A stretch of 64,000 nucleotides of DNA from Gemmatimonadota bacterium (GCA_003220935.1 QHTT01000066.1:90990-154989); one strand, 5' to 3'. Positions 23,205 to 58,280 are shown, counted from the stretch's first letter. Notes: generated from the letters alone by a model not told the origin. Numbers and translations are program-made.

Positions 23205-24860
23205 CTATCTCCTCTCGTATACCACTTTCCCACCCACGATCGTGACCGCGACCCGGGCCGTGCTGATCGACTCCGGCGGCAGCGTGAACAGATTGCGGTC
23301 GATCACCACCACGTCCGCGTCGTAGCCGGGAGCGAGCGTGCCCCGCCTCTTGTCGGCGAACGTCGCATAGGCATTCCCCGCGGTATAGGCGCGCAGGGCC
23401 TCGCCCACCGTGATCCTCTGCTCAGGCACCCACCCGTTCGGATTCTTGCCGTCGAGGGTGCGGCGCGTGACCGCGGCGTAGATCCCCGAGATCGGGTCGA
23501 GCGGCGCGACGGTCCAGTCGGACCCGAACGCGAGCTTCGCCCCGGTATCGAGCAACGTGCGGAACGCATAGGTCGTCTTGATGCGCAGCGGGCCGATGCG
23601 CTGCTCGACCCAACGGCCGTCGTCGATGGCGTGATAAGGCTGCATCGAGGGAATCACACCCAGGGTGCCGAACAACGGAATGTCCTGCGGCCGCAGGTGC
23701 TGGGCGTGCTCCACGCGAAACCGGCGGTCCCGGGGCCCGTGTGCCTTGGTCACGCTGTCGTAGATCGACAAGATGAGCGCATTGGCGCGGTCGCCGATGG
23801 CGTGCACCGCCACTTGCAACCCCGCCGAGTCGGCGTTGCCGATCCACGTGGCGAGGTCCTGCGGCGGGTGCTGTAGCAAGCCGGCATAGCCCGTCGAGTC
23901 GGCGTACGGCTGGAAGAAGGCGGCGGTGCGCGCGCCCGCGGAGCCGTCCGCGAAGCCCTTCAGCCCGGCGATGCGGACCCAGTCGTCCCCCGGGCCCGCG
24001 CGCCGGACCGTGTCCGCGACGGCGCGCCACTGCTCGAGAGGCAAGTACAGGGCCACGCGCATGGTCAGGCGGCCCGCCTTTTCCAGGCGCCGGTAGGCCG
24101 CCACGTCCGCCCAGGACGCCGCCATATGCGCAGTGGCAGTAACGCCGAGTGACGCGGCGTGAGCGAGGGCGCGCGCCAGCGCCGAGTCCTGCTGCTCGGG
24201 AGACGGGTCAGGCTCGACCCGACCGATGAGATCGAGCGCCTGATCCTTGAAGATCCCGATGGGCTCGCCGGTCTTCGGGTCGCGCAGGATCTCACCGCCC
24301 GCTGGCGTGGGGGTGTCCTTGGTGATGCCGGCTGCTTTCATGGCAGCGGCGTTCGCGAGCGCCTCGTGGCCGTCCAGCCGACTGACGAAGACGGGGTTGC
24401 TGGGCGTCACCGAATCGATCCATTCGTGCCGCGGCAGCGGCTGGCCCGGCCAAAGCGTGTGGTCCCAATCACCACCGGTGATCCATTCCCCGGGCTTGAC
24501 GGTTCGCGCGTACTCCCGGAGACGCCGGATGAATTCCTGGGGCGTCGCGGCGTTTCGCAGATCGACCGACGCGAGCCGGAACCCGCCGCCAATGAAGTGC
24601 GTGTGGCCGTCTGCGAGACCGGGGATCACCAGCCCGCCGTGCGCGTGAATCACCTGGGTGCGCGAGCCGACGTAGCGGGCGATCGCGGCTGAGTCGCCGA
24701 CCGCGAGGATCTTGCCCGCCGCGATCGCCACGACGCCCGGCTGCGCAGCGCCAGAGGAGAGGCCGGTCCATACCATACCGCCGCGGATGACGATTTCCGC
24801 CGGCCGGCCGCACGCGGCGAGCGAAACGCACAACAGTCCCACCTGAACGTGTCGGCTCAT
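23205..24860 (-). CDS. Lipoprotein amidohydrolase-family metal-dependent hydrolase
   Basis: 551 aa. Lipobox in MSRHVQVGLLCVSLAAC, HxH metal motif GLADGHTHF, and amidohydrolase_3-like length and C-terminus. Confidence 0.85.
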   Translation of the reverse strand: MSRHVQVGLLCVSLAACGRPAEIVIRGGMVWTGLSSGAAQPGVVAIAAGKILAVGDSAAIARYVGSRTQVIHAHGGLVIPGLADGHTHFIGGGFRLASVDLRNAATPQEFIRRLREYARTVKPGEWITGGDWDHTLWPGQPLPRHEWIDSVTPSNPVFVSRLDGHEALANAAAMKAAGITKDTPTPAGGEILRDPKTGEPIGIFKDQALDLIGRVEPDPSPEQQDSALARALAHAASLGVTATAHMAASWADVAAYRRLEKAGRLTMRVALYLPLEQWRAVADTVRRAGPGDDWVRIAGLKGFADGSAGARTAAFFQPYADSTGYAGLLQHPPQDLATWIGNADSAGLQVAVHAIGDRANALILSIYDSVTKAHGPRDRRFRVEHAQHLRPQDIPLFGTLGVIPSMQPYHAIDDGRWVEQRIGPLRIKTTYAFRTLLDTGAKLAFGSDWTVAPLDPISGIYAAVTRRTLDGKNPNGWVPEQRITVGEALRAYTAGNAYATFADKRRGTLAPGYDADVVVIDRNLFTLPPESISTARVAVTIVGGKVVYERR

Positions 24861-49563: not shown

Positions 49564-51003
49564 TCAGTGCACCGTGATCGAAGTTTGGCCGGTCTTGCCC
49601 TCGCTCGTCGCGCGCAGCAACGCGCTCCCAACCTTCCGGCACCGGACAATCGAGTAGGGACCGAACGCCCCCTCGATGACGAAGACCGCGGTGTCGGTGC
49701 TGAACCACGAGACGGGCCGGTTGGTGAGCACGGTCCCGGCGCTGTCGCGCAGCTCCGCCCGGAAGCCGAGGCTATCGCCCACGGCGGCGGTCACGCTTCC
49801 GGGCACTACGGTGACGGACGCTACGGGCGCCGGCGAGCCGACCACTTGCACCGTGAGCGTGTCGCTCAGGCCACCGCTCGTCGCCGTGATGGTCGCCAGG
49901 CCCGGTTGACGGCCAGCCACAGACGCAGTGTCACCCACGCCGGTCACGTCGGCGATCGACGGGGCACTGCTCGTCCAGGTGACGGACGGATTCGGAACAA
50001 GGTTGCCGTTCGCGTCGCCGACGGCGGCATACAGAGTGATCGTCCCCCCGACGCCGACCGACGAGGGGCCGGAGACGTGCACGTATGCACCGCCGGTGCT
50101 ACCGCCCGCCGCTGGGAGTGAAACGGAGAGCCTCGTGGTGGCGCCCGCCGAGACCTGCACGTTCGGGGTTACGACCGCACCGAGGGACGGGTAGTCGGGC
50201 TGCTCGATTCGGACGATGTAGGTCGCGGCGCTCACGAAGGCGACCTTGTAATAGCCCGTGTCGTCGCTCCGGCCGGTGGCCGCAGCGTACCACGTGGACG
50301 GCGGCTGGCGCGGATCGCCCGAGTACAGCGTGACGTTCGCATTCTTGATGGGTCGGCTCTGTCCGCCGGAGTCGGCAGTCACCGTGCCCTCGAGCGCCCC
50401 GGTCGCGGCCGAGTTCACCGCGCGCAGCCAAGGCAGCACGGTGAATTCCTTGGTGCCGAAATAGTCGTACAGAAAGCTCCGCCCCACGTCGAAGTCGATC
50501 ACGATCACTGCCTCCCCGCTCGCCGCAATCGCTGGCGCCGAGAAGTCGAGCGGCTCTTCGACCAGGGCGTACATCGTGATGGCTCCGCTCCCCGGCCACG
50601 GCCAGTGCACCGGCGGTGGCGCACCGTTGTTGTAGACGATCGAAGATTTGTCAGCGTCGATCACCATGCGGATCGCCCGGTATTGTCGGGCGTCGAGCTC
50701 GCCTTCGCCGAGGAAGGCGGTGGTCCCGTGCTGCAGCGTCAGCAAGTCGAACGTTTTCTCGGGAGAGGCGACCCGAACCCAGTCGCCGCCTCCGCTCGTG
50801 TCGAGCCCGCTGCTGGCGTCGATGCTGACCACGTAGACGTTGACACTCGCGACCGAGTCGTACGGGAACGGCGCGTCCGTTAGCAGCACCCGAGCGAGTG
50901 GCTTGCGGCTCGGCGCGGGAGTCGTAGTCTCGTCTTGGTAGCACCCGCCCCCGGCTAGCAGGGTGGCGGCGGCGAGGGCGGGCAGGATGACACGTCTCGA
51001 CAT
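49564..51003 (-). CDS. Lipoprotein with DUF4382-like, carboxypeptidase-regulatory-like and two Big_2 (Ig-like) domains
   Basis: 479 aa from ATG 51003 with GGAGAAGGAG SD and lipobox LLAGGGC. The C-terminus has two Ig-like repeats (TLYAAVGDANGN...TWTSS..., VTAAVGDSLGFRAELRDSAG...SWFS...). Confidence 0.75.
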   Translation of the reverse strand: MSRRVILPALAAATLLAGGGCYQDETTTPAPSRKPLARVLLTDAPFPYDSVASVNVYVVSIDASSGLDTSGGGDWVRVASPEKTFDLLTLQHGTTAFLGEGELDARQYRAIRMVIDADKSSIVYNNGAPPPVHWPWPGSGAITMYALVEEPLDFSAPAIAASGEAVIVIDFDVGRSFLYDYFGTKEFTVLPWLRAVNSAATGALEGTVTADSGGQSRPIKNANVTLYSGDPRQPPSTWYAAATGRSDDTGYYKVAFVSAATYIVRIEQPDYPSLGAVVTPNVQVSAGATTRLSVSLPAAGGSTGGAYVHVSGPSSVGVGGTITLYAAVGDANGNLVPNPSVTWTSSAPSIADVTGVGDTASVAGRQPGLATITATSGGLSDTLTVQVVGSPAPVASVTVVPGSVTAAVGDSLGFRAELRDSAGTVLTNRPVSWFSTDTAVFVIEGAFGPYSIVRCRKVGSALLRATSEGKTGQTSITVH

Positions 51004-51136
51004 CGTTGGCTCCTTCTCCGGGCATGCGGGACCGCGACGGCTCTGCGAGAGATACCCCAGCTCCCACTGCGAAGTCACAACACCGCCCGATGCGGGGTAC
51101 TGTGACGCAGGGGGTTGTCCCTTGGGTATAGATAAG

Positions 51137-51679
51137 GTGGGGGCGAGCGACGGAGACTTGGTGCGCCGAGTCCTGGCTGGCGACACCGGTGCCTACGCCG
51201 CGCTGGTCGCGCGGTACCGCGACCGCCTGGGTCGGTACGCCGTGCACATGCTCGGGGACCGGCAGGATGCGGAGGAGGCGCTACAAGACGCGTTCGTCCG
51301 GGCATACCGCTCGCTGGCGCGCTGCGACGATCCCGAGCGGTTCGGTGCGTGGCTTTACGGCATCCTGGTGAATCGGTGCCGCACGACCGGCGGGCGCGCG
51401 GCGCGGCGCGCGCGGCTGTTCGTGCGCAACGACGCGGCGCTCAGCGGTGTTGCCCTCCCGAGTCCGGCCGAGCGCGCCGAATGGGACGACACCGTCCGGC
51501 GGGCGCTCGCGCGGCTCGCGCCCGAATACCGGGAGGCGTTTCTCCTCAAGCACGTGGAGGAGTTGGAGTACGAAGAGATGGCGCAGCTCACCGGCGCCGG
51601 TATCTCGGCGTTGAAGATGCGGGTGAAACGCGCCCGCGAGCAGCTGCAGGTCATTTTCCGAGAGGCAGAACGTGTTTGA
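51137..51679 (+). CDS. ECF-type RNA polymerase sigma-70 family factor
   Basis: About 180 aa. Region 2 is DAEEALQDAFVRAY. Region 4 is EYREAFLLKHVEELEYEEMAQLTGAGISALKMRVKRAREQL. The GTG 51137 start is uncertain; TTG/GTG near 51158 are alternatives. Confidence 0.85.
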   Translation: MGASDGDLVRRVLAGDTGAYAALVARYRDRLGRYAVHMLGDRQDAEEALQDAFVRAYRSLARCDDPERFGAWLYGILVNRCRTTGGRAARRARLFVRNDAALSGVALPSPAERAEWDDTVRRALARLAPEYREAFLLKHVEELEYEEMAQLTGAGISALKMRVKRAREQLQVIFREAERV

Positions 51680-52226
51680 ACAACCGGAAGACGCGGTCGA
51701 GCGCATCGTCCGTCAGCTGCAGCGGCCCGTGCCAATCGATCCGGCGGTCGACGGCCGTGTGATGGACGAGATCGCGCGCCTCCCCGTGCCGGGGGGACGC
51801 AGCGCGGCCCGAGTCGCCTGGGGCTGGGTCACCCGGCCGCGCCACATTGCGCTCTCGCCGCTCGGCGGGCTGGCGATCGCAACGGGGGTCGCCGCGCTCG
51901 CGCTGGTGCTATCGGGCCGGCGCCCCGGGTCAGCGCCGCCCGCGGAGGACACGCCACGCGAGTTTGAGTTCGTCGTCGTCGCCCCCCGCGCGGCAAGCGT
52001 GTCGCTCGTGGGCGACTTCAACGACTGGGACGCCGCCCGCACCCCGATGCGACCTTCACAACGCGGCGGCCCGCTGTGGACCGCGGTCGTTCCGCTCGCT
52101 CCAGGGCGCTACCGTTACGCCTTCCTCGTGGACGGCTCCCGCTGGCTCGCCGATCCCGCGGCTCCACGCGCGCGCGATGACGAGTTCGGGACACCGAGCT
52201 CGGTCGTGACCGTGGGGGGCTCGTGA
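51672..52226 (+). CDS. Single-pass membrane protein (putative anti-sigma) with extracytoplasmic AMPK-CBM/E-set (CBM48-like) domain
   Basis: 184 aa, overlapping the sigma gene by 8 nt. One TM (LGGLAIATGVAALALVL). The C-terminal VSLVGDFNDW...PGRYRYAFLVDGSRW matches the glycogen-binding-domain pattern. No HxxxCxxC ZAS motif. Confidence 0.7.
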   Translation: MFEQPEDAVERIVRQLQRPVPIDPAVDGRVMDEIARLPVPGGRSAARVAWGWVTRPRHIALSPLGGLAIATGVAALALVLSGRRPGSAPPAEDTPREFEFVVVAPRAASVSLVGDFNDWDAARTPMRPSQRGGPLWTAVVPLAPGRYRYAFLVDGSRWLADPAAPRARDDEFGTPSSVVTVGGS

Positions 52227-52864
52227 CGCTGCGATCGCTGCTCCGCGCCGCGGTCGCCACCGCACTCGCCGCGGCGTTCGTGGCCACGGCGGCGGCTGCG
52301 CAGGATCCGCGGCTCGGACGCCTCGACCCGGGCACGCGCCCGCTGGTCGCGGTCGCGATCGACTCGGCGCGCGCCGCGGGCCTTCCCACGGAGCCGCTGG
52401 TGCAGCGTGCACTCGAAGGCGCGACGAAAGGCGCGCCGGGCCCGCTCATCGTGAGCGCGGTGCAGCGCCTCGCCGCCGATCTTGGCCGGGCCCGCGAGGC
52501 CCTCGGACCAGGGACCACGCCGCCCGAGCTCGAGGCAGGGGCCGCGGCGCTCCGCGCCGGCGCCGGCCCGGCGGTGCTGACGCAGCTGCGCCGGGCGCGC
52601 CGTCAGACCATCGCGGTTCCGCTCGCTGTGCTCACTGACCTCGTGGCCAGCGGCGTCCCCGTAGACAGCGCCGCGGCCGCCGTGCTCGCCCTCGCGGCAC
52701 GAGCCAGAGACGCGGACCTCGTCGAGTTCCGGCGCGCCGTCGAGCGCGACATCGCGCTCGGCGCACCGCCCACGGCCGCCACCGCGGCCGCTGCGGCGGC
52801 CGCGGATGCCAGGATCTCGCAGCTGAATGCGGGGGCCCGCGAGAATCGCCCCGGCCGCCCCTAG
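52223..52864 (+). CDS. Secreted Ala-rich hypothetical protein
   Basis: 213 aa with signal peptide MTLRSLLRAAVATALAAAFVATAAAAQ. ATGA overlap with the upstream gene. Confidence 0.6.
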   Translation: MTLRSLLRAAVATALAAAFVATAAAAQDPRLGRLDPGTRPLVAVAIDSARAAGLPTEPLVQRALEGATKGAPGPLIVSAVQRLAADLGRAREALGPGTTPPELEAGAAALRAGAGPAVLTQLRRARRQTIAVPLAVLTDLVASGVPVDSAAAAVLALAARARDADLVEFRRAVERDIALGAPPTAATAAAAAAADARISQLNAGARENRPGRP

Positions 52865-54020
52865 CACCGCGCGTCCGGCGACGAGCACGCGACGTGCCTG
52901 GGCCGCGTCCGTCACGGCGGCGTGGTCGCTCCTGAGCGTGCGCACAGCAGTTGCCCAGATGACCGGGACCGTCGACCTCGGCGTCTCCACCGTCCACTAC
53001 GATGGTTTCCTCCCCTCCGGCGCCGCCGCCGTCACCCCCGTCCTGCGCTGGGACCGGCCCGCCGGGATGCTCACCGCCAGCGGCACGTATCTCCGGTTCG
53101 AGAGCGGCCACCGCAGCCTGCAGGGCCTCCTGGCGGGCTCATTCTTGACGCCTCCCGCCGCGCATGCGTGGCGCGGCGAGTTCGCTGCGTCGGCGGGCGC
53201 AAGCCGCTACCTCGATTTCGCGAGCTTCTGGCACGTCGTTGCCGAGGCCCGGCTGCATAGGCTGGGAGCGGAGCGCGGCCTGTGGGTCGGCGGGACCGCA
53301 GGAACGACGTCGTACGGCACCGCGCCTCGCCCCGTGATCGCGGCGGACGTCGGGGTCTGGGCCCGGCGGTCCGAGGTCACGCTGAGACTCGCAGTAAACC
53401 ACGCACAGGTCGGCGACACGACCTACACCGATCTCGAATCCTCAGCCCATGCCGGGCGTGGTCCGGTCGCGCTCGAAGCGAAGCTCGGCGCGCGCGTCTG
53501 GAGCCGCGGCGGTGGCCGCGGCGTGTACGGGGAAGGAAGCGCCACCATCTGGGTCGGAGGGCGAACGGCGTTCGTGATCTCAGGCGGCCGCTACGCGACC
53601 GATCCGATCAGCGGCAGCATCACCGGCCGCTATCTCTCCGCCGCGCTGCGCGTCCGCACCGCCGCGCCGCGCCGCGCGTTCCCGCGCGATCCCGCGGTGC
53701 TACACGCCCGCGGTGCGGATGGAGCAACCGTCCTGCGGGCGGCCCGGCTCGAGGTGCACGCCGACCGCAATCGGGCGGTGCGGCTCGTCGTGCGGGTCGC
53801 CAGCGCTGCGCTCGTCGAGATCGCCGGAGACTTCACCGATTGGCAGCCTGTCGCCCTGGGCAGCGCCAGCCCCGACACGTGGGAGGTCACGCTGCCGGTG
53901 CCGAGCGGCGTGCATCGGCTCGACGTGCGTATCGACGGTGGCGCGTGGATCGTACCGGCCGGCACGACGCGAGCACCCGATGACTACGGCGGCGACGTTG
54001 GGATCTTCGTAGTGCCATAG
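52827..54020 (+). CDS. Secreted beta-rich protein with a second C-terminal AMPK-CBM/E-set (CBM48-like) domain
   Basis: 397 aa. The N-terminal two thirds have an alternating beta-strand-like pattern. The C-terminal VEIAGDFTDWQPV...SGVHRLDVRIDGGAW is paralogous to the domain in 51672..52226. Confidence 0.6.
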   Translation: MRGPARIAPAAPSTARPATSTRRAWAASVTAAWSLLSVRTAVAQMTGTVDLGVSTVHYDGFLPSGAAAVTPVLRWDRPAGMLTASGTYLRFESGHRSLQGLLAGSFLTPPAAHAWRGEFAASAGASRYLDFASFWHVVAEARLHRLGAERGLWVGGTAGTTSYGTAPRPVIAADVGVWARRSEVTLRLAVNHAQVGDTTYTDLESSAHAGRGPVALEAKLGARVWSRGGGRGVYGEGSATIWVGGRTAFVISGGRYATDPISGSITGRYLSAALRVRTAAPRRAFPRDPAVLHARGADGATVLRAARLEVHADRNRAVRLVVRVASAALVEIAGDFTDWQPVALGSASPDTWEVTLPVPSGVHRLDVRIDGGAWIVPAGTTRAPDDYGGDVGIFVVP

Positions 54021-55258
54021 GGCCGCTCTCCTGCCCCCTCTGCCTTGACCGCCTGGAGCCGCCGAATCGAGGCGATACCCAAGCCGGGGCCGATCGCCAG
54101 CGCAGCGAACGCCCACCGCCAGCCGACGAGGGCGACGAGCGGCGGAACGAGCTGAATGCTCGCCATCGTGAGCAGAAATCCCAACGACGTCTGCAGAGTC
54201 AGCGCAGTCCCCACCGCGTGCGGCGGCACCGATCTCGTGACCATCGTGCTGAACTGCGCCGAATCGGCGATGACGAAGAACCCCCACACCCATGCGACGG
54301 CGACCATGACCCAGACGCTCGATGCAAAGAAACCGCCGATGACTGCGGCGCAGCTGCCGCTCACCGCCATGGCCCGGATCACGAGCCGCTCGTGCCCGAT
54401 CCGATCCGCAACCCAGCCGCCCCACACGCACCCCAAGCCGCCGACGGCGATGGCTCCAAACGCCAGCAGACCGAGCACCGCCGCGGAGGGCACGGCGCCA
54501 CCCGCGCGGGCGCGCGCGGCCGCGCTCGCCACGACAAAAGCCGTGATCCACGTCCAGAAACTGTACAGCTCCCACATGTGCCCCAGATAACCACCCGTCG
54601 CCAGGCGCCACCGTCGCTCCCCCAGCACGGTCCCGGCGAGACGCCATGAGAACGGCCGTCTCGCGAACGCGAACGGCCCGTCGCGGTATCCCGCGGCCAC
54701 GAGCAGGGCGGCCACCAGCGCGCCCCCCGATACGACGACCACGACCGGGGCGACGCGCGAGCCGGCGAGCGCGTGCGCCAGATACGGCACCGCCTTGCCG
54801 ACCGTGAGCGCCCCGACCACGGTCCCGATCGCCAGGCCCCGATCCGAAGAGAACCACGTCGCGATCATCTTCATGGCAGGCGGGTACACCCCCGCGAGGC
54901 AGAACCCGGTGAAGAAGCGAGAGACGAGGGCGAGCGGATAGGTCGGCGCCGCGAGTAGGGCGGCGTTGACCACCGCGCCGAGTGTCGCCGACCCCGCGAA
55001 ATACCAGCGTGACGGGATCACGTCGGCGAGGTTCAGGACGGCAGCGGTCGCGGTTCCAGCGACGAATCCAGCTTGCACCGCGGCCGTCAGCCAGCCCGTC
55101 TGGCTCGCTGTCAGACCCCACTGGCGCTGGAGCTCGGGTGCAACGGCACTGGCGGCGAACCACAGGCACATCCCGAGCAACTCGGCCGCTGCGAGCAGGA
55201 GCAGCATCGGCCAGCGATGAGGATGGGCGTCGAGCGCGGTGGCGCCCGTGAGCGTCAT
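53984..55258 (-). CDS. MFS transporter
   Basis: 424 aa with about 12 predicted TM helices. It overlaps the convergent upstream gene by 37 nt. Confidence 0.85.
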   Translation of the reverse strand: MTLTGATALDAHPHRWPMLLLLAAAELLGMCLWFAASAVAPELQRQWGLTASQTGWLTAAVQAGFVAGTATAAVLNLADVIPSRWYFAGSATLGAVVNAALLAAPTYPLALVSRFFTGFCLAGVYPPAMKMIATWFSSDRGLAIGTVVGALTVGKAVPYLAHALAGSRVAPVVVVVSGGALVAALLVAAGYRDGPFAFARRPFSWRLAGTVLGERRWRLATGGYLGHMWELYSFWTWITAFVVASAAARARAGGAVPSAAVLGLLAFGAIAVGGLGCVWGGWVADRIGHERLVIRAMAVSGSCAAVIGGFFASSVWVMVAVAWVWGFFVIADSAQFSTMVTRSVPPHAVGTALTLQTSLGFLLTMASIQLVPPLVALVGWRWAFAALAIGPGLGIASIRRLQAVKAEGAGERPYGTTKIPTSPP

Positions 55259-55277: not shown

Positions 55278-56030
55278 TCACAGACCGGTAGGATGGTCGA
55301 GGAACGTCCAGGGCAGGCCGAACTTGACGCACAGGTGCTCCGCGAGCGCTTTGACGCCGACGGTCTCCGTCGCGTAATGGCCGGCGTAGAAGACGTTCAC
55401 CCCTAACTCCTCGGCGTCAAAGAAGGTGTGGTGCGCTCCTTCGCCGGTGATGTAGGTGTCGAGCCCCGCCGCCCGGGCCTGGCCGATCATCGAGCCTGCT
55501 CCCCCGGTGACAATGCCCACCCGCCGCACCCGCTCGGGGCCGAACGGCATGACCCGCGGCGGGGCGCCGAGCGCCGCGGCGAGCTTCTGCTGCAGCGCGC
55601 CGCGCGGAGCATCGAGCTCCCCCCACACGCCGATCTGCACGCCGTACTCCTCGCCGAAGCCACCGCGCACCGTGACGCCGAGCTGCCGGGCGAGCACCGC
55701 GTTGTTCCCGACGTCCGGATGTAGATCCAGGGGGAGATGCGCACTGTAGAGCGCGATGTTCTTTTGCAAGAGTCCGGCCACGCGGCGGTACGCAGGGCCG
55801 GTGAGCGGCTTGAGCCCGCCCCAAAACAGCCCGTGATGCACGAGCAGCAGGTCAGCCCCCTGCTCAGCCGCCATCCGCACCGTCGCTTCACACAGGTCGA
55901 CGGCCGCCGCGATGCGCGCGACGTCGCCCGAGTTCGCGACTTGCAGCCCATTGAGCGCGTGGGGCGCGTCGGGCACGTCACGAACGCGCAGGTAGGCGTC
56001 GAGGTAGGTGACCAAATCGGCAAGCTGCAT
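55278..56030 (-). CDS. Nif3-like dinuclear metal centre protein (GTP cyclohydrolase 1 type 2 homologue)
   Basis: 250 aa with motifs NGLQV, LLLVHHGLFW, YSAHLPLD and AGHYATE. Confidence 0.9.
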   Translation of the reverse strand: MQLADLVTYLDAYLRVRDVPDAPHALNGLQVANSGDVARIAAAVDLCEATVRMAAEQGADLLLVHHGLFWGGLKPLTGPAYRRVAGLLQKNIALYSAHLPLDLHPDVGNNAVLARQLGVTVRGGFGEEYGVQIGVWGELDAPRGALQQKLAAALGAPPRVMPFGPERVRRVGIVTGGAGSMIGQARAAGLDTYITGEGAHHTFFDAEELGVNVFYAGHYATETVGVKALAEHLCVKFGLPWTFLDHPTGL

Positions 56031-56143
56031 CAGCCCGTGCGACGGTGACAGTATGATGACATTAGCGCGCCAGCCTAGAGACAGTGACGTGAGATTCCCA
56101 CATGGGGAAAGCTGTAAGCCGCTATGCAGTAGCGAGATAAATA

Positions 56144-56174
56144 ATCCACACGCGGGAAACGCCCGCGTGTGGAT
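56144..56174 (-). terminator. Strong intrinsic terminator of the parA-parB-M23-bactofilin operon
   Basis: Perfect 13-bp stem ATCCACACGCGGG / CCCGCGTGTGGAT with a 5-nt loop, 13 nt after the bactofilin stop. On the minus strand it is followed by ATTATTTATCTC. Confidence 0.75.
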
Positions 56175-56186
56175 ATCTAGAACGGA

Positions 56187-56597
56187 TCAGTAGGTGCGTT
56201 GCGACCCTGCCTTTTCGACGGTTTCGGGCTCAAGCGTGGTCTCGCCCATCCGCACTACGCCGTTGATCTCACCGCCCTCTTGCACGAGGAGTCGCTTGGC
56301 CGCGATGTCCCCGTGCACCACACACGACGCTTGGATCTCGACGCGCTCGTCGGCGCGGATGCTGCCGCGCACCTCCCCGCCGATGATGGCTTCGCGGGAA
56401 ATCACATCGCCCTCCACTTCCCCGCCCTTGCCCACCAGCACCTGGCGCCCGGCGCGCACCGTGCCGACGACGGTCCCTTCGATCTTCACCACCCCCTCAG
56501 CGGTGATGTCGCCGACGACCCGCATGCCGGTCCCGATGATCGAGAGACCGGTTTCGGTTACCGGGGCGCCGTGTCCCTTCTCGGTGAAGATGGCCAT
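56187..56597 (-). CDS. Bactofilin (polymer-forming cytoskeletal protein, DUF583)
   Basis: 136 aa. Characteristic beta-helix repeats (G.V.G.V....V...G.V.G.V) run throughout. AGGAG SD. Confidence 0.9.
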   Translation of the reverse strand: MAIFTEKGHGAPVTETGLSIIGTGMRVVGDITAEGVVKIEGTVVGTVRAGRQVLVGKGGEVEGDVISREAIIGGEVRGSIRADERVEIQASCVVHGDIAAKRLLVQEGGEINGVVRMGETTLEPETVEKAGSQRTY

Positions 56598-56598
56598 G

Positions 56599-57387
56599 TC
56601 AGTTCTCCTGTCTCACGACCGTAAGGGGATCGAGCGACTTCCCCGCGCGGCGGATTTCGAAATGCAGGTGCGGCGCGGTGGATCGGCCTGAGCTGCCGGA
56701 AAGCGCGATTACCTGCCCCGCTGCGACCGAGTCGCCTTCGCGCGCGACCAAGCGCGATGCGTGTCCATACATGGTCTCATACCCGTCGGTGTGCCGCAAG
56801 AGCACGAACAGCCCGTACGCGGGGTCCGTGCCGGCCTGCGCTACGACGCCGCCGCCGGCGGCGCGCACCGGCGTTCCCGCCGGCACAGCGATGTCGATCC
56901 CGGGGTGGGACTCCGCGGGATCGCCCGGGCGCACTTGTCCACGCGTGACGAAACCACTCATGTCGAGCGGCCAGTGCAGCGGGGTCGCGGAGTCTGGCGC
57001 GAACCGTGGCGGCGCGCCGGGGGCTCGCGCCTGCACGGCTCCCGCGCGCAACAAGTCAGCGGTCACGACGACCTTTTCGGGCGGCGCCTTCACGCCCAGC
57101 AGCTGGCGCAGCTCCTGGTAGTTGGCCTCCGCCCGGTTCAGTGCAGCGGCCAACTGCTGCACGCGGCTGTTCTCCTCCTTGAGGCGCGCGACTTCCCGAT
57201 CGAGCAGCTGCGCGCGAATGGCGTTCCGGGTGATCGGGCCGGCGAACAAGAAGAACAGGACGACCAGGACGGCAATGCCACCCGCCGCCCACTTCCCCAT
57301 TTCGAAGGCCCACAGCGGTACGCGGTATTGGCGGGACTCGAGCTCGCCGTCAGTGTGGACGACGATGGTGACGCTCTTGTCCCTCAT
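56599..57387 (-). CDS. Membrane-anchored M23-family (LytM-type) metallopeptidase with coiled-coil
   Basis: 262 aa with one TM and a coiled-coil. Motifs are HPGIDIA, GYETMYGHAS and STAPHLHFEI. Confidence 0.9.
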   Translation of the reverse strand: MRDKSVTIVVHTDGELESRQYRVPLWAFEMGKWAAGGIAVLVVLFFLFAGPITRNAIRAQLLDREVARLKEENSRVQQLAAALNRAEANYQELRQLLGVKAPPEKVVVTADLLRAGAVQARAPGAPPRFAPDSATPLHWPLDMSGFVTRGQVRPGDPAESHPGIDIAVPAGTPVRAAGGGVVAQAGTDPAYGLFVLLRHTDGYETMYGHASRLVAREGDSVAAGQVIALSGSSGRSTAPHLHFEIRRAGKSLDPLTVVRQEN

Positions 57388-58280
57388 CCGTCGAACGGCG
57401 CTCCGAGGAACAGCTCGAGCAGACGCGCGAGGTCTTCGTTCGAATAGAAGTTGACGTGGATCTGCCCCTTCCCTTTCGCCCGCAAGGTCACGCGCACGTC
57501 GGTACCCAGCCGCCGGCGCAGCGCGTCCTCGATGCGGCGCACTTCCGGTGCCTGACCGAGCCCCTGCTTGAGGCGCGGCCGGCGGACCGGGGCCCGGCCG
57601 CCCCGCACCCGATCCTCGACGTCGCGCACCGAGAGCCCGAGGTCGACGGCTTCCTTGGCGACCGCGGCCACGGCGCGCGGGTCGTCGAGCGCGAGCAGCG
57701 CGCGCGCGTGCCCGACCGAGAGCCGTCCTTCGTGCAGCAGCGCCAGCACGGTCGCCGGCAGCTTGAGGAGCCGGAGTGCGTTGGCGACCGTGGAGCGATC
57801 GCGTCCTACGGCATCGGCCACGTCCTGCTGGGCGAGACTGAACTCGGCGATGAGGCGTTCGTAGCCGCGCGCTTCGTCGACCGGCGAGAGGTCGTCGCGC
57901 TGTAGGTTTTCGATCAGCGCGAGCGTCAGCACCGTGCGGTCGTCCACATCGCGCTTCACGGCCGGGATCCGCTCCCAGCCGAGCGCCTGACAGGCGCGCA
58001 GGCGCCGCTCGCCGGCGATCAGCTCGTAGCCGGCTGGCCGGTCGCGCGGCGCCGCGCGCACCACCACCGGCTGCAGCAGACCGGCTTTCAGAATCGAGGC
58101 CTTGAGCTCGTCCAGCGCTGTCGGGTCGACGTCCCGGCGCGGCTGGTAGGGATTGGGCCGAATGTCGGCGATCGCCAATTCGACGAGACTCCCTTCGCGC
58201 TCCGCTTCCTCGCGCGTCGGTCCCAGCAGGGCCTCGAGCCCCCGACCGAGACGCCGGCGACCAGCGATGGTTTCCGTCAT
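57384..58280 (-). CDS. parB: Chromosome partitioning protein ParB (Spo0J)
   Basis: 298 aa. Motifs are [15 protein letters not shown] and [12 protein letters not shown], with an HTH. ATGA overlap with parA. Confidence 0.95.

Follow-up and report, generated by a model that had tools for sequence, protein, structure and literature searches.

Extracytoplasmic function (ECF) sigma factors and their anti-sigma factors are a major signalling mechanism of bacteria. To our knowledge, a signal is known to pass from the outer membrane to an anti-sigma factor by two routes, TonB-dependent transducers or the proteolytic sensing of misfolded porins. Here we describe a four-gene operon that encodes an ECF sigma factor, a single-pass membrane protein, a helical secreted protein and a predicted outer-membrane barrel protein, and compare it with the closest described systems. 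The operon lies in a high-GC (~70%) stretch of 64 kb from a Gemmatimonadota bacterium (GCA_003220935.1 QHTT01000066.1:90990-154989), referred to below as the window, whose closest relatives are all metagenome-assembled genomes of Gemmatimonadota/Gemmatimonadales. Two of its products, the membrane protein and the barrel protein, carry a domain of the carbohydrate-binding module 48 (CBM48) type. With moderate confidence, we regard the operon as a self-contained ECF signalling module, specific to and widespread in Gemmatimonadota, in which a sigma/anti-sigma pair works with an outer-membrane partner. The features referred to are listed here, with their basis in brackets.

49564-51003, minus strand: DUF4382 lipoprotein gene, divergent from the operon (Pfam)
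51052..51078, minus strand: ECF-type motif GTGAC-N16-GGGTAT facing the lipoprotein gene (mirror copy)
51102..51129, plus strand: ECF-type motif GTGACG-N17-GGGTAT before the sigma factor gene (ends 7 nucleotides ahead of the start codon)
51137-51679, plus strand: ECF sigma factor gene (Pfam, NCBIfam)
51672-52226, plus strand: membrane-protein gene, 184 residues (open reading frame, Pfam)
51672..51845, plus strand: predicted cytoplasmic N-terminal region of the membrane protein, residues 1-58 (motif kept across divergent loci)
51846..51917, plus strand: single transmembrane helix, residues 59-82 (hydrophobic stretch, alignments)
51948..52226, plus strand: CBM48 domain, residues 93-184 and stop codon (Pfam; periplasmic location predicted)
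52223-52864, plus strand: gene for the Ala-rich helical protein, 213 residues (open reading frame, AlphaFold model)
52827-54020, plus strand: barrel-protein gene, 397 residues (open reading frame, AlphaFold model, hhalign)
52956..53663, plus strand: modelled 14-stranded barrel, residues 44-279, after a signal peptide at residues 1-43 that ends in AVAQ (AlphaFold, Foldseek)
53745..54020, plus strand: C-terminal CBM48-like domain, residues 307-397 and stop codon (hhalign, BLASTP; periplasmic location predicted)

The systems closest to this cassette are FecA-FecR-FecI and the SusC-like/anti-sigma/ECF systems of Bacteroides. There, too, a barrel with an extra periplasmic domain, a single-pass anti-sigma factor with a periplasmic sensor and an ECF sigma factor are encoded together, and the signal runs from the outer membrane to the cytoplasm, as we propose here. 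Unlike those systems, the window cassette contains no TonB-dependent receptor, STN or FecR domain. Its barrel is modelled with 14 strands and not 22, the extra domain is C-terminal and not N-terminal, the two domains predicted to be periplasmic are paralogous to each other (CBM48/E-set), and there is an additional, novel helical protein, also predicted to be periplasmic. No match to TonB_dep_Rec, Plug, STN or FecR was obtained when the five proteins were scanned with Pfam and NCBIfam, or among the called genes of the related loci. This agrees with the initial annotation, made from the DNA sequence of the window, which had stated that the system lacks any TonB-dependent element.

Other described systems share single traits with the cassette. 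SigI-RsgI of Clostridium thermocellum likewise has a carbohydrate-binding-type module on a membrane anti-sigma factor and an adjacent sigma gene (PMC10328401, PMC6852018). It differs in being Gram-positive and having no outer-membrane partner, in using a SigI-type sigma factor and an RsgI_N domain, neither of which was found here, and in carrying CBM/PA14 modules and not CBM48. RpoE-RseA-RseB and SigX-CfrX-CmpX-OprF (ECF102; PMC7826278) have in common with the proposed module an RpoE/SigW-like sigma factor, a single-pass anti-sigma factor, a periplasmic co-regulator, a link to an outer-membrane protein, and autoregulation, which is predicted here. Unlike these systems, the cassette gave no detectable RseA_N or MucB_RseB domain, has the gene for its outer-membrane protein within the operon, with a paralogue of the sensor-type domain on the product, and has a putative inhibitory domain that is much shorter (~35 conserved residues). 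The barrel protein is laid out like OmpA, with an even-stranded barrel at the N-terminus that is joined by a flexible linker to a globular domain at the C-terminus, predicted to be periplasmic; unlike OmpA, it is modelled with 14 strands and not 8, and has a CBM48-like beta-sandwich instead of the peptidoglycan-binding OmpA_C. In the searchable literature, neither an anti-sigma factor of the CBM48 or glycogen-binding kind nor the present cassette was found described, although a bare listing may exist in the group tables of the ECF Hub, and the main text of the ECF reclassification paper mentions neither CBM48 nor Gemmatimonadetes (PMC7826278). The statement in the initial annotation that the mechanism is undescribed is in line with these searches.

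Open reading frames were found exactly where the initial annotation had placed four overlapping plus-strand genes. Successive genes overlap by 8, 4 and 38 nucleotides (nt). In the fourth gene, no in-frame start other than the ATG at 52827 precedes the signal peptide, and the coordinates first given for this gene therefore stand.

The first gene had been read as an ECF sigma factor, and this is what it encodes. The protein, of 180 residues, matched Sigma70_r2 (56.7 bits) and Sigma70_r4_2 (50.1 bits) in Pfam and has only the sigma-2 and sigma-4 domains. In NCBIfam it matched TIGR02937 sigma70-ECF with 77.4 bits against a cut-off of 42.9, while the nearest named models, SigW, SigM and RpoE, each scored far under their equivalog cut-offs. 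Among proteins of solved structure, ECF sigma factors are its closest relatives, and SigW and SigE rank near the top. It is thus an ECF (group 4) sigma-70 factor of the RpoE/SigW-like kind.

Conservation of the cassette was examined by scanning one genome per species with an alignment of the barrel protein, followed by tblastn with the proteins of the window. The barrel-anchored scan gave 79 loci, all in Gemmatimonadota. All four genes were present in 55 of the 55 complete loci, with barrel-protein identity falling to 27%. The order was sigma-membrane protein-helical protein-barrel in 52 of these and sigma-membrane protein-barrel-helical protein in the other 3. The cassette persists where the flanking genes for an M20 peptidase, a beta-lactamase-fold protein and a major facilitator superfamily (MFS) transporter are gone. 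The bias of anchoring on the barrel was offset by four extra contexts, found via distant homologues of the membrane protein alone. Three of these hold the full four-gene cassette between unrelated flanks; in the fourth, where the contig starts shortly before the membrane-protein gene, the three genes that follow the sigma gene are present. The cassette is therefore kept in every sufficiently complete Gemmatimonadota locus examined. The sigma and membrane-protein genes overlap in 64 of 66 loci, by 4-20 nt and most often by 8 nt, and the junction between the membrane-protein gene and the next gene is -4 in 46 of 67. Such overlaps across loci indicate translational coupling.

The domain that ends the membrane protein was matched in Pfam by CBM_48 (47.1 bits, cut-off 22.4) and AMPK1_CBM (36.2 bits, cut-off 26.8) at residues 93-181, and 21 of 21 divergent orthologues matched both families. 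Its best solved relative is the CBM of AMPK beta1 (E 1.8e-10). In the barrel protein of the window, the only family match was to AMPK1_CBM at residues 328-389, with 21.4 bits, under the cut-off of 26.8. When the two window proteins were compared by BLASTP, residues 93-173 of the former aligned with 313-389 of the latter (31% identity over 81 residues, E 6e-8), and hhalign of the two domain families gave a probability of 98% and an E value of 1.8e-13. Many orthologues of the barrel protein have precomputed PF16561/PF02922 matches, and two distant ones exceed the CBM_48 cut-off (24.2 bits in locus L063 and 22.6 bits in L062). Because of the BLASTP, hhalign and orthologue matches, the sub-threshold domain is taken to be a real homologue, and by these sequence comparisons the two CBM48-type domains are true paralogues. 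The initial annotation had described the end of the beta-rich protein as a second copy of the membrane protein's domain. This holds, and as regards the profile scores it needs one qualification: the membrane-protein domain is above both cut-offs, whereas the barrel copy of the window alone is below threshold and passes only in its orthologues. In the divergent alignment of the barrel protein, AGDFTDW and a later W, G, R, W, P and G are invariant; the barrel part is poorly conserved (27-40% identity in distant loci).

An exhaustive profile search with the membrane protein returned 391 clusters (at 50% identity) with E < 1e-30, consisting of family members and of unrelated multi-CBM48 proteins. 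Each of the seven members that were read (7 of 7) contained the N-terminal motif described below, the transmembrane helix and the CBM48 domain. A protein search of a plasmid collection returned the CBM48 domains of GlgB only. The top matches of the profile search (P0361, P0362, P0401 and P0484) are very large proteins with tandem CBM48-like repeats, in which up to 18 stretches were matched (in a protein of 1812 residues; another has 6207). These giant proteins have no obvious link to the cassette.

As to the topology of the membrane protein, the initial annotation had called it single-pass and free of the zinc-associated anti-sigma (ZAS) motif. One hydrophobic helix is indeed present, and reading of the sequence showed that the N-terminus contains no cysteine, hence no HxxxCxxC. 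The protein lacks a signal peptide and has a long hydrophilic N-terminus, for which reason its CBM48 domain should, by topology rules, lie in the periplasm. The putative cytoplasmic part contains a motif of about 35 residues, D-x-h-h-E-R-h-h-x-x-L-R-R-P-V-x-h-D-P-x-h-D-x-R-V-M (h, hydrophobic), which is conserved in divergent loci. Minimal anti-sigma factors of class II, such as CnrY and NepR, are known, and the N-terminus, with room for two short helices, resembles this type by analogy. From its position, the translational coupling and the topology, the membrane protein is a putative anti-sigma factor with a candidate minimal inhibitory domain.

A further conserved stretch with Pro and Gly, SPLxGLA (residues 59-67, 51846-51870), is found where the transmembrane helix meets the cytoplasm and is preceded by W-x-W-L-x-R-P-R. 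Helix-breaking residues at the edge of a transmembrane helix are typical of substrates of site-2 proteases. It is speculative, but the stretch hints that the membrane protein may be such a substrate.

The AlphaFold model of the barrel protein shows 14 long strands (residues 44-279), a disordered linker (280-303) and a beta-sandwich (307-396), so that the protein models as an outer-membrane 14-stranded beta-barrel. When the model was compared with the Protein Data Bank (PDB) by Foldseek, the 14-stranded porin OmpG came first (E 1.2e-7, target TM-score 0.59-0.65), and CymA appeared lower down. Sequence identity to OmpG and CymA is only 7-10%, and the likeness is that of a generic 14-stranded barrel; as there is no sequence-family match, we assign the protein to an OmpG/CymA-like fold and not to the OmpG family. 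The barrel that the initial annotation had suspected at residues 40-290 is thus borne out by the model.

In outer-membrane barrels with an even number of strands, the two ends of the chain lie in the periplasm; OmpA, whose C-terminal domain is periplasmic, is an example. For this reason the CBM48-like domain of the barrel protein should be periplasmic and not exposed at the surface, provided that the modelled topology is right. Both sensor-type domains should then face the same compartment, the periplasm. The idea of a beta-rich outer-envelope component with a carbohydrate-binding-type domain is kept in this way, with the barrel resting on the model and the domain placed in the periplasm. Both domains are held on variable tethers that are Pro/Ala-rich or disordered, as judged from the alignments and the model.

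The third gene had been described as encoding an Ala-rich secreted protein. A signal peptide is present, and the AlphaFold model (pLDDT, predicted local distance difference test, 88.9) is all-alpha, with 11 helices of which the first is that of the signal peptide. No Pfam or NCBIfam family matched, MucB_RseB included. Foldseek against the PDB found no natural neighbour of the model but only designed helical repeats (best E 0.015), and a sequence-profile search of the PDB gave nothing under E 0.03. Within the cassette only the sigma factor is better conserved; the median identity of the helical protein across loci is 66%. The predicted mature N-terminus, QDPRLxRL (residues 27-34, 52301-52324), is nearly invariant in orthologues from 96% down to 33% identity, which may mean that this end has a specific part in docking or processing.

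The divergent intergenic region between the lipoprotein and sigma genes is 133 nt long and holds two copies of an ECF-type motif back to back. They stand upstream of both 51003 and 51137, the two places pointed to in the initial annotation for a search for target promoters; the two-part motif itself, also present before the lipoprotein gene, is new relative to it. Exactly 2 matches occur in the 64 kb, compared with 0.06 expected by chance. With the motif slightly relaxed, 110 of 127 matches in the locus set lay no more than 260 nt ahead of the sigma gene, and the other ~2 Mb of the loci contained 17. The gap between the plus-strand motif and the start codon of the sigma gene is exactly 7 nt in 52 of 65 loci, and 51 of 65 have the minus-strand copy. 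A footprint aligned on the sigma start showed conservation of TGTGACG and GGGTATAGA, with the spacer at background. The start codon of the sigma gene is GTG (ATG in a distant clade), and from the 7-nt spacing a leaderless sigma mRNA is predicted. For the minus-strand copy, the predicted 5' untranslated region is ~42 nt long, with AAGGAG before the lipoprotein ATG at 51003.

In the distant clade (loci L066-L081), whose sigma factors are ~55% identical, GTCACA-N16-GGTCT replaces the motif. Among the 15 listed members of this clade, 8 have it 7 nt ahead of the sigma start and 4 have it on the strand that faces the lipoprotein gene. A change of the motif on both strands is what would be expected from co-evolution with the ECF sigma factor, rather than from recognition by a housekeeping sigma factor, and a consensus scan found no sigma-70-type promoter in the intergenic region. 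The motif was met again, with an unchanged offset, in L082 and L083, which are independent contexts. We predict from these sequence patterns that the ECF sigma factor reads the motif, with autoregulation and with the lipoprotein gene as a member of its regulon.

The motif is comparable to the promoters of ECF41, which have a TGTCACA -35 element and a spacer of 16+/-1 (PMC3426412). Common to ECF41 (TGTCACA-N16-CGTC) and the present motif are the GTCAC-type -35, the spacer of ~16 nt and a short -10 containing GT, and in ECF41, too, the motif precedes both the sigma gene and one target gene next to it (PMC3426412). Unlike ECF41, the sigma factor here has no C-terminal extension (180 residues), the -10 is GGGTAT or GGTCT, and a leaderless sigma mRNA is predicted.

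Two other readings of these repeats were tried and dropped. The inverted GTCAC/GTGAC pair does not behave as one palindromic operator, as the distance between the halves varies from ~14 to 29 nt and each half has its own GGGTAT on its own strand, at a constant 16-17 nt. A third relaxed match, GTCACG-N17-GGTAT at 23219-23246 on the minus strand, lies at the 3' end of the open reading frame 23205-24860 and is no more than chance would give, with ~1.2 such matches per window in shuffles. Separately, the sigma gene as publicly annotated in L082 and L083 begins too far upstream, and its reading frame takes in the promoter.

The divergent gene is, as first annotated, that of a DUF4382/Big_2 lipoprotein on the minus strand at 49564-51003. 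It matched DUF4382 (60.4 bits), CarboxypepD_reg (34.9 bits) and Big_2 (26.6 bits) in Pfam, and its signal peptide ends in LLAGGGC. Of 65 loci, 51 include a DUF4382 gene; in L063 this gene has changed place and is now the fifth on the same strand. In literature searches DUF4382 appeared a single time, in a paper on archaeal glycoproteomics.

The mechanism that we propose for the module is as follows. The sigma factor would be held at the inner membrane by the adjacent single-pass protein, via its short, non-ZAS N-terminus of two-helix size. The periplasmic CBM48 domain of the membrane protein would be the sensor, the CBM48-like domain of the barrel would hang into the periplasm on its flexible linker, and the helical protein may act as a periplasmic co-factor. 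In this arrangement the sensor of the anti-sigma factor could read the state of the outer-membrane protein, either by direct pairing of the paralogous beta-sandwiches or through a shared periplasmic glycan. On loss or change of the contact the sigma factor would be released, probably by proteolysis of the anti-sigma factor, and the free sigma factor would transcribe its own operon from the leaderless promoter and the divergent DUF4382 lipoprotein gene from the mirror motif. A more far-reaching version of this scheme is tentative, and we think it possible rather than probable: that the cassette represents a TonB-independent class of trans-envelope signalling, in which a heterotypic CBM48/E-set pairing, possibly glycan-bridged and modulated by the helical protein, reports the state of the outer membrane or envelope, and in which the ~35-residue N-terminus is a new anti-sigma domain.

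Several observations weigh against a sigma/anti-sigma module of this kind. No Pfam anti-sigma family (zf-HC2, RskA, RseA_N) was matched by 21 full-length or 26 N-terminal sequences of the membrane protein, even at E values up to 5-10, and in a profile search of the PDB with the N-terminus the best match was RseA at E 0.24, which is not significant. As the short cytoplasmic domain matches no known anti-sigma domain, it is position, coupling and topology on which the anti-sigma assignment is built. The barrel model is of moderate confidence (pLDDT 77; pTM, predicted template modelling score, 0.59) and had 39 aligned sequences as its input. That the promoters are used, and that initiation is leaderless, is predicted from sequence. 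In 4 of the 4 contexts anchored on the membrane protein, the DUF4382 gene was not adjacent, and it is therefore a frequent accessory and not a core part. Lastly, the equivalent of AMPK beta1 K126, which is needed for glycogen binding there, is missing from both domains in the alignments, and no carbohydrate-active enzyme, glycoside hydrolase or sugar transporter is conserved beside the cassette, either in the related loci or in the contexts anchored on the membrane protein. As a candidate of its own, a class I/ZAS anti-sigma domain was considered for the N-terminus and dropped, there being no cysteine and no profile match, with RseA only at E 0.24.

The last two of these points bear also on the alternative that survives best, a strict glycan sensor. 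Here the barrel would be an oligosaccharide channel like OmpG or CymA, both CBM48 domains would bind an alpha-glucan or maltodextrin that enters the periplasm, and sugar on the anti-sigma factor would free the sigma factor. Both domains are of the CBM48/AMPK1_CBM kind, the solved structures most like the barrel are sugar channels, and a precedent exists in RsgI of Clostridium thermocellum, where carbohydrate-binding sensor modules are found on anti-sigma factors (PMC10328401, PMC6852018). Glycogen binding by the CBM of AMPK beta1 is lost in the mutants W100G and K126Q and reduced in W133L and G147R (PMC6274970). The residues that match W100, W133 and G147 are retained, as W119, W158 and G173 in the membrane protein and as W339, W374 and G388 in the barrel protein, and are invariant. 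The equivalent of K126, however, is Ala (A150) in the membrane protein and Asp (D366; Asp/Asn among orthologues) in the barrel protein. With the tryptophans conserved and the K126 equivalent replaced, the aromatic platform is kept but a key polar contact is lost. Moreover, the predicted regulon near the locus consists of the operon and the DUF4382 lipoprotein gene only, with no glycoside hydrolase or sugar transporter conserved nearby, and the likeness of the barrel to OmpG and CymA is generic, at 7-10% sequence identity. We consider a strict glycan sensor unlikely. Glycan binding by either domain is possible. E-set domains also mediate protein contacts. The glycan sensing put forward in the initial annotation is in this sense not established, with the W100, W133 and G147 equivalents in its favour and the loss of K126 and the lack of carbohydrate genes nearby against it; taken as a whole, the earlier interpretation is partly supported.

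That there is no signalling at all, the sigma factor simply driving structural envelope genes for an envelope-spanning or glucan-handling complex and the membrane protein being no anti-sigma factor, would fit the lack of a recognisable anti-sigma domain, the envelope nature of all four downstream products and the rank of the helical protein as second most conserved (median 66%), as expected of a structural part, but is quite improbable, because the sigma and membrane-protein genes overlap in 64 of 66 loci, an arrangement typical of sigma/anti-sigma pairs, because ~35 conserved cytoplasmic residues exceed the needs of an anchor and imply a cytoplasmic partner, and because a positively autoregulated ECF sigma factor without an inhibitor would stay locked on.

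Downstream of the operon, a convergent MFS gene (53984-55258, minus strand) overlaps the 3' end of the barrel gene by 37 nt (53984-54020), and a consensus scan detected no intrinsic terminator between the two genes. The adjoining syntenic block at 55278-58280 (minus strand) comprises genes for an MFS transporter, NIF3/DUF34, bactofilin, an M23 peptidase and ParB, with ParA beyond them in L001; the domain names in this block were transferred from the syntenic loci L001 and L002 and do not come from scanning the genes of the window. Because the block contains ParB (and ParA in L001), its presence suggests that the locus lies near the chromosome partition/origin region in close relatives. Scans for tRNA genes and for Rfam families at the gathering threshold found none across the whole 64 kb.

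If the proposed sigma/anti-sigma module with its outer-membrane partner is true, it would be a third design for carrying a signal from the outer membrane to an anti-sigma factor, in which paired paralogous sensor-type domains are tethered to two membranes. Two further additions would be an anti-sigma domain that is very short and unclassified and a periplasmic helical protein whose fold has no natural neighbour in the PDB. As the predicted local regulon is tiny and the promoter is sharply defined, the cassette would be easy to test, and the sigma factor and its promoter could be reused as an orthogonal pair. The cassette is widespread in an abundant and poorly studied phylum of the soil.

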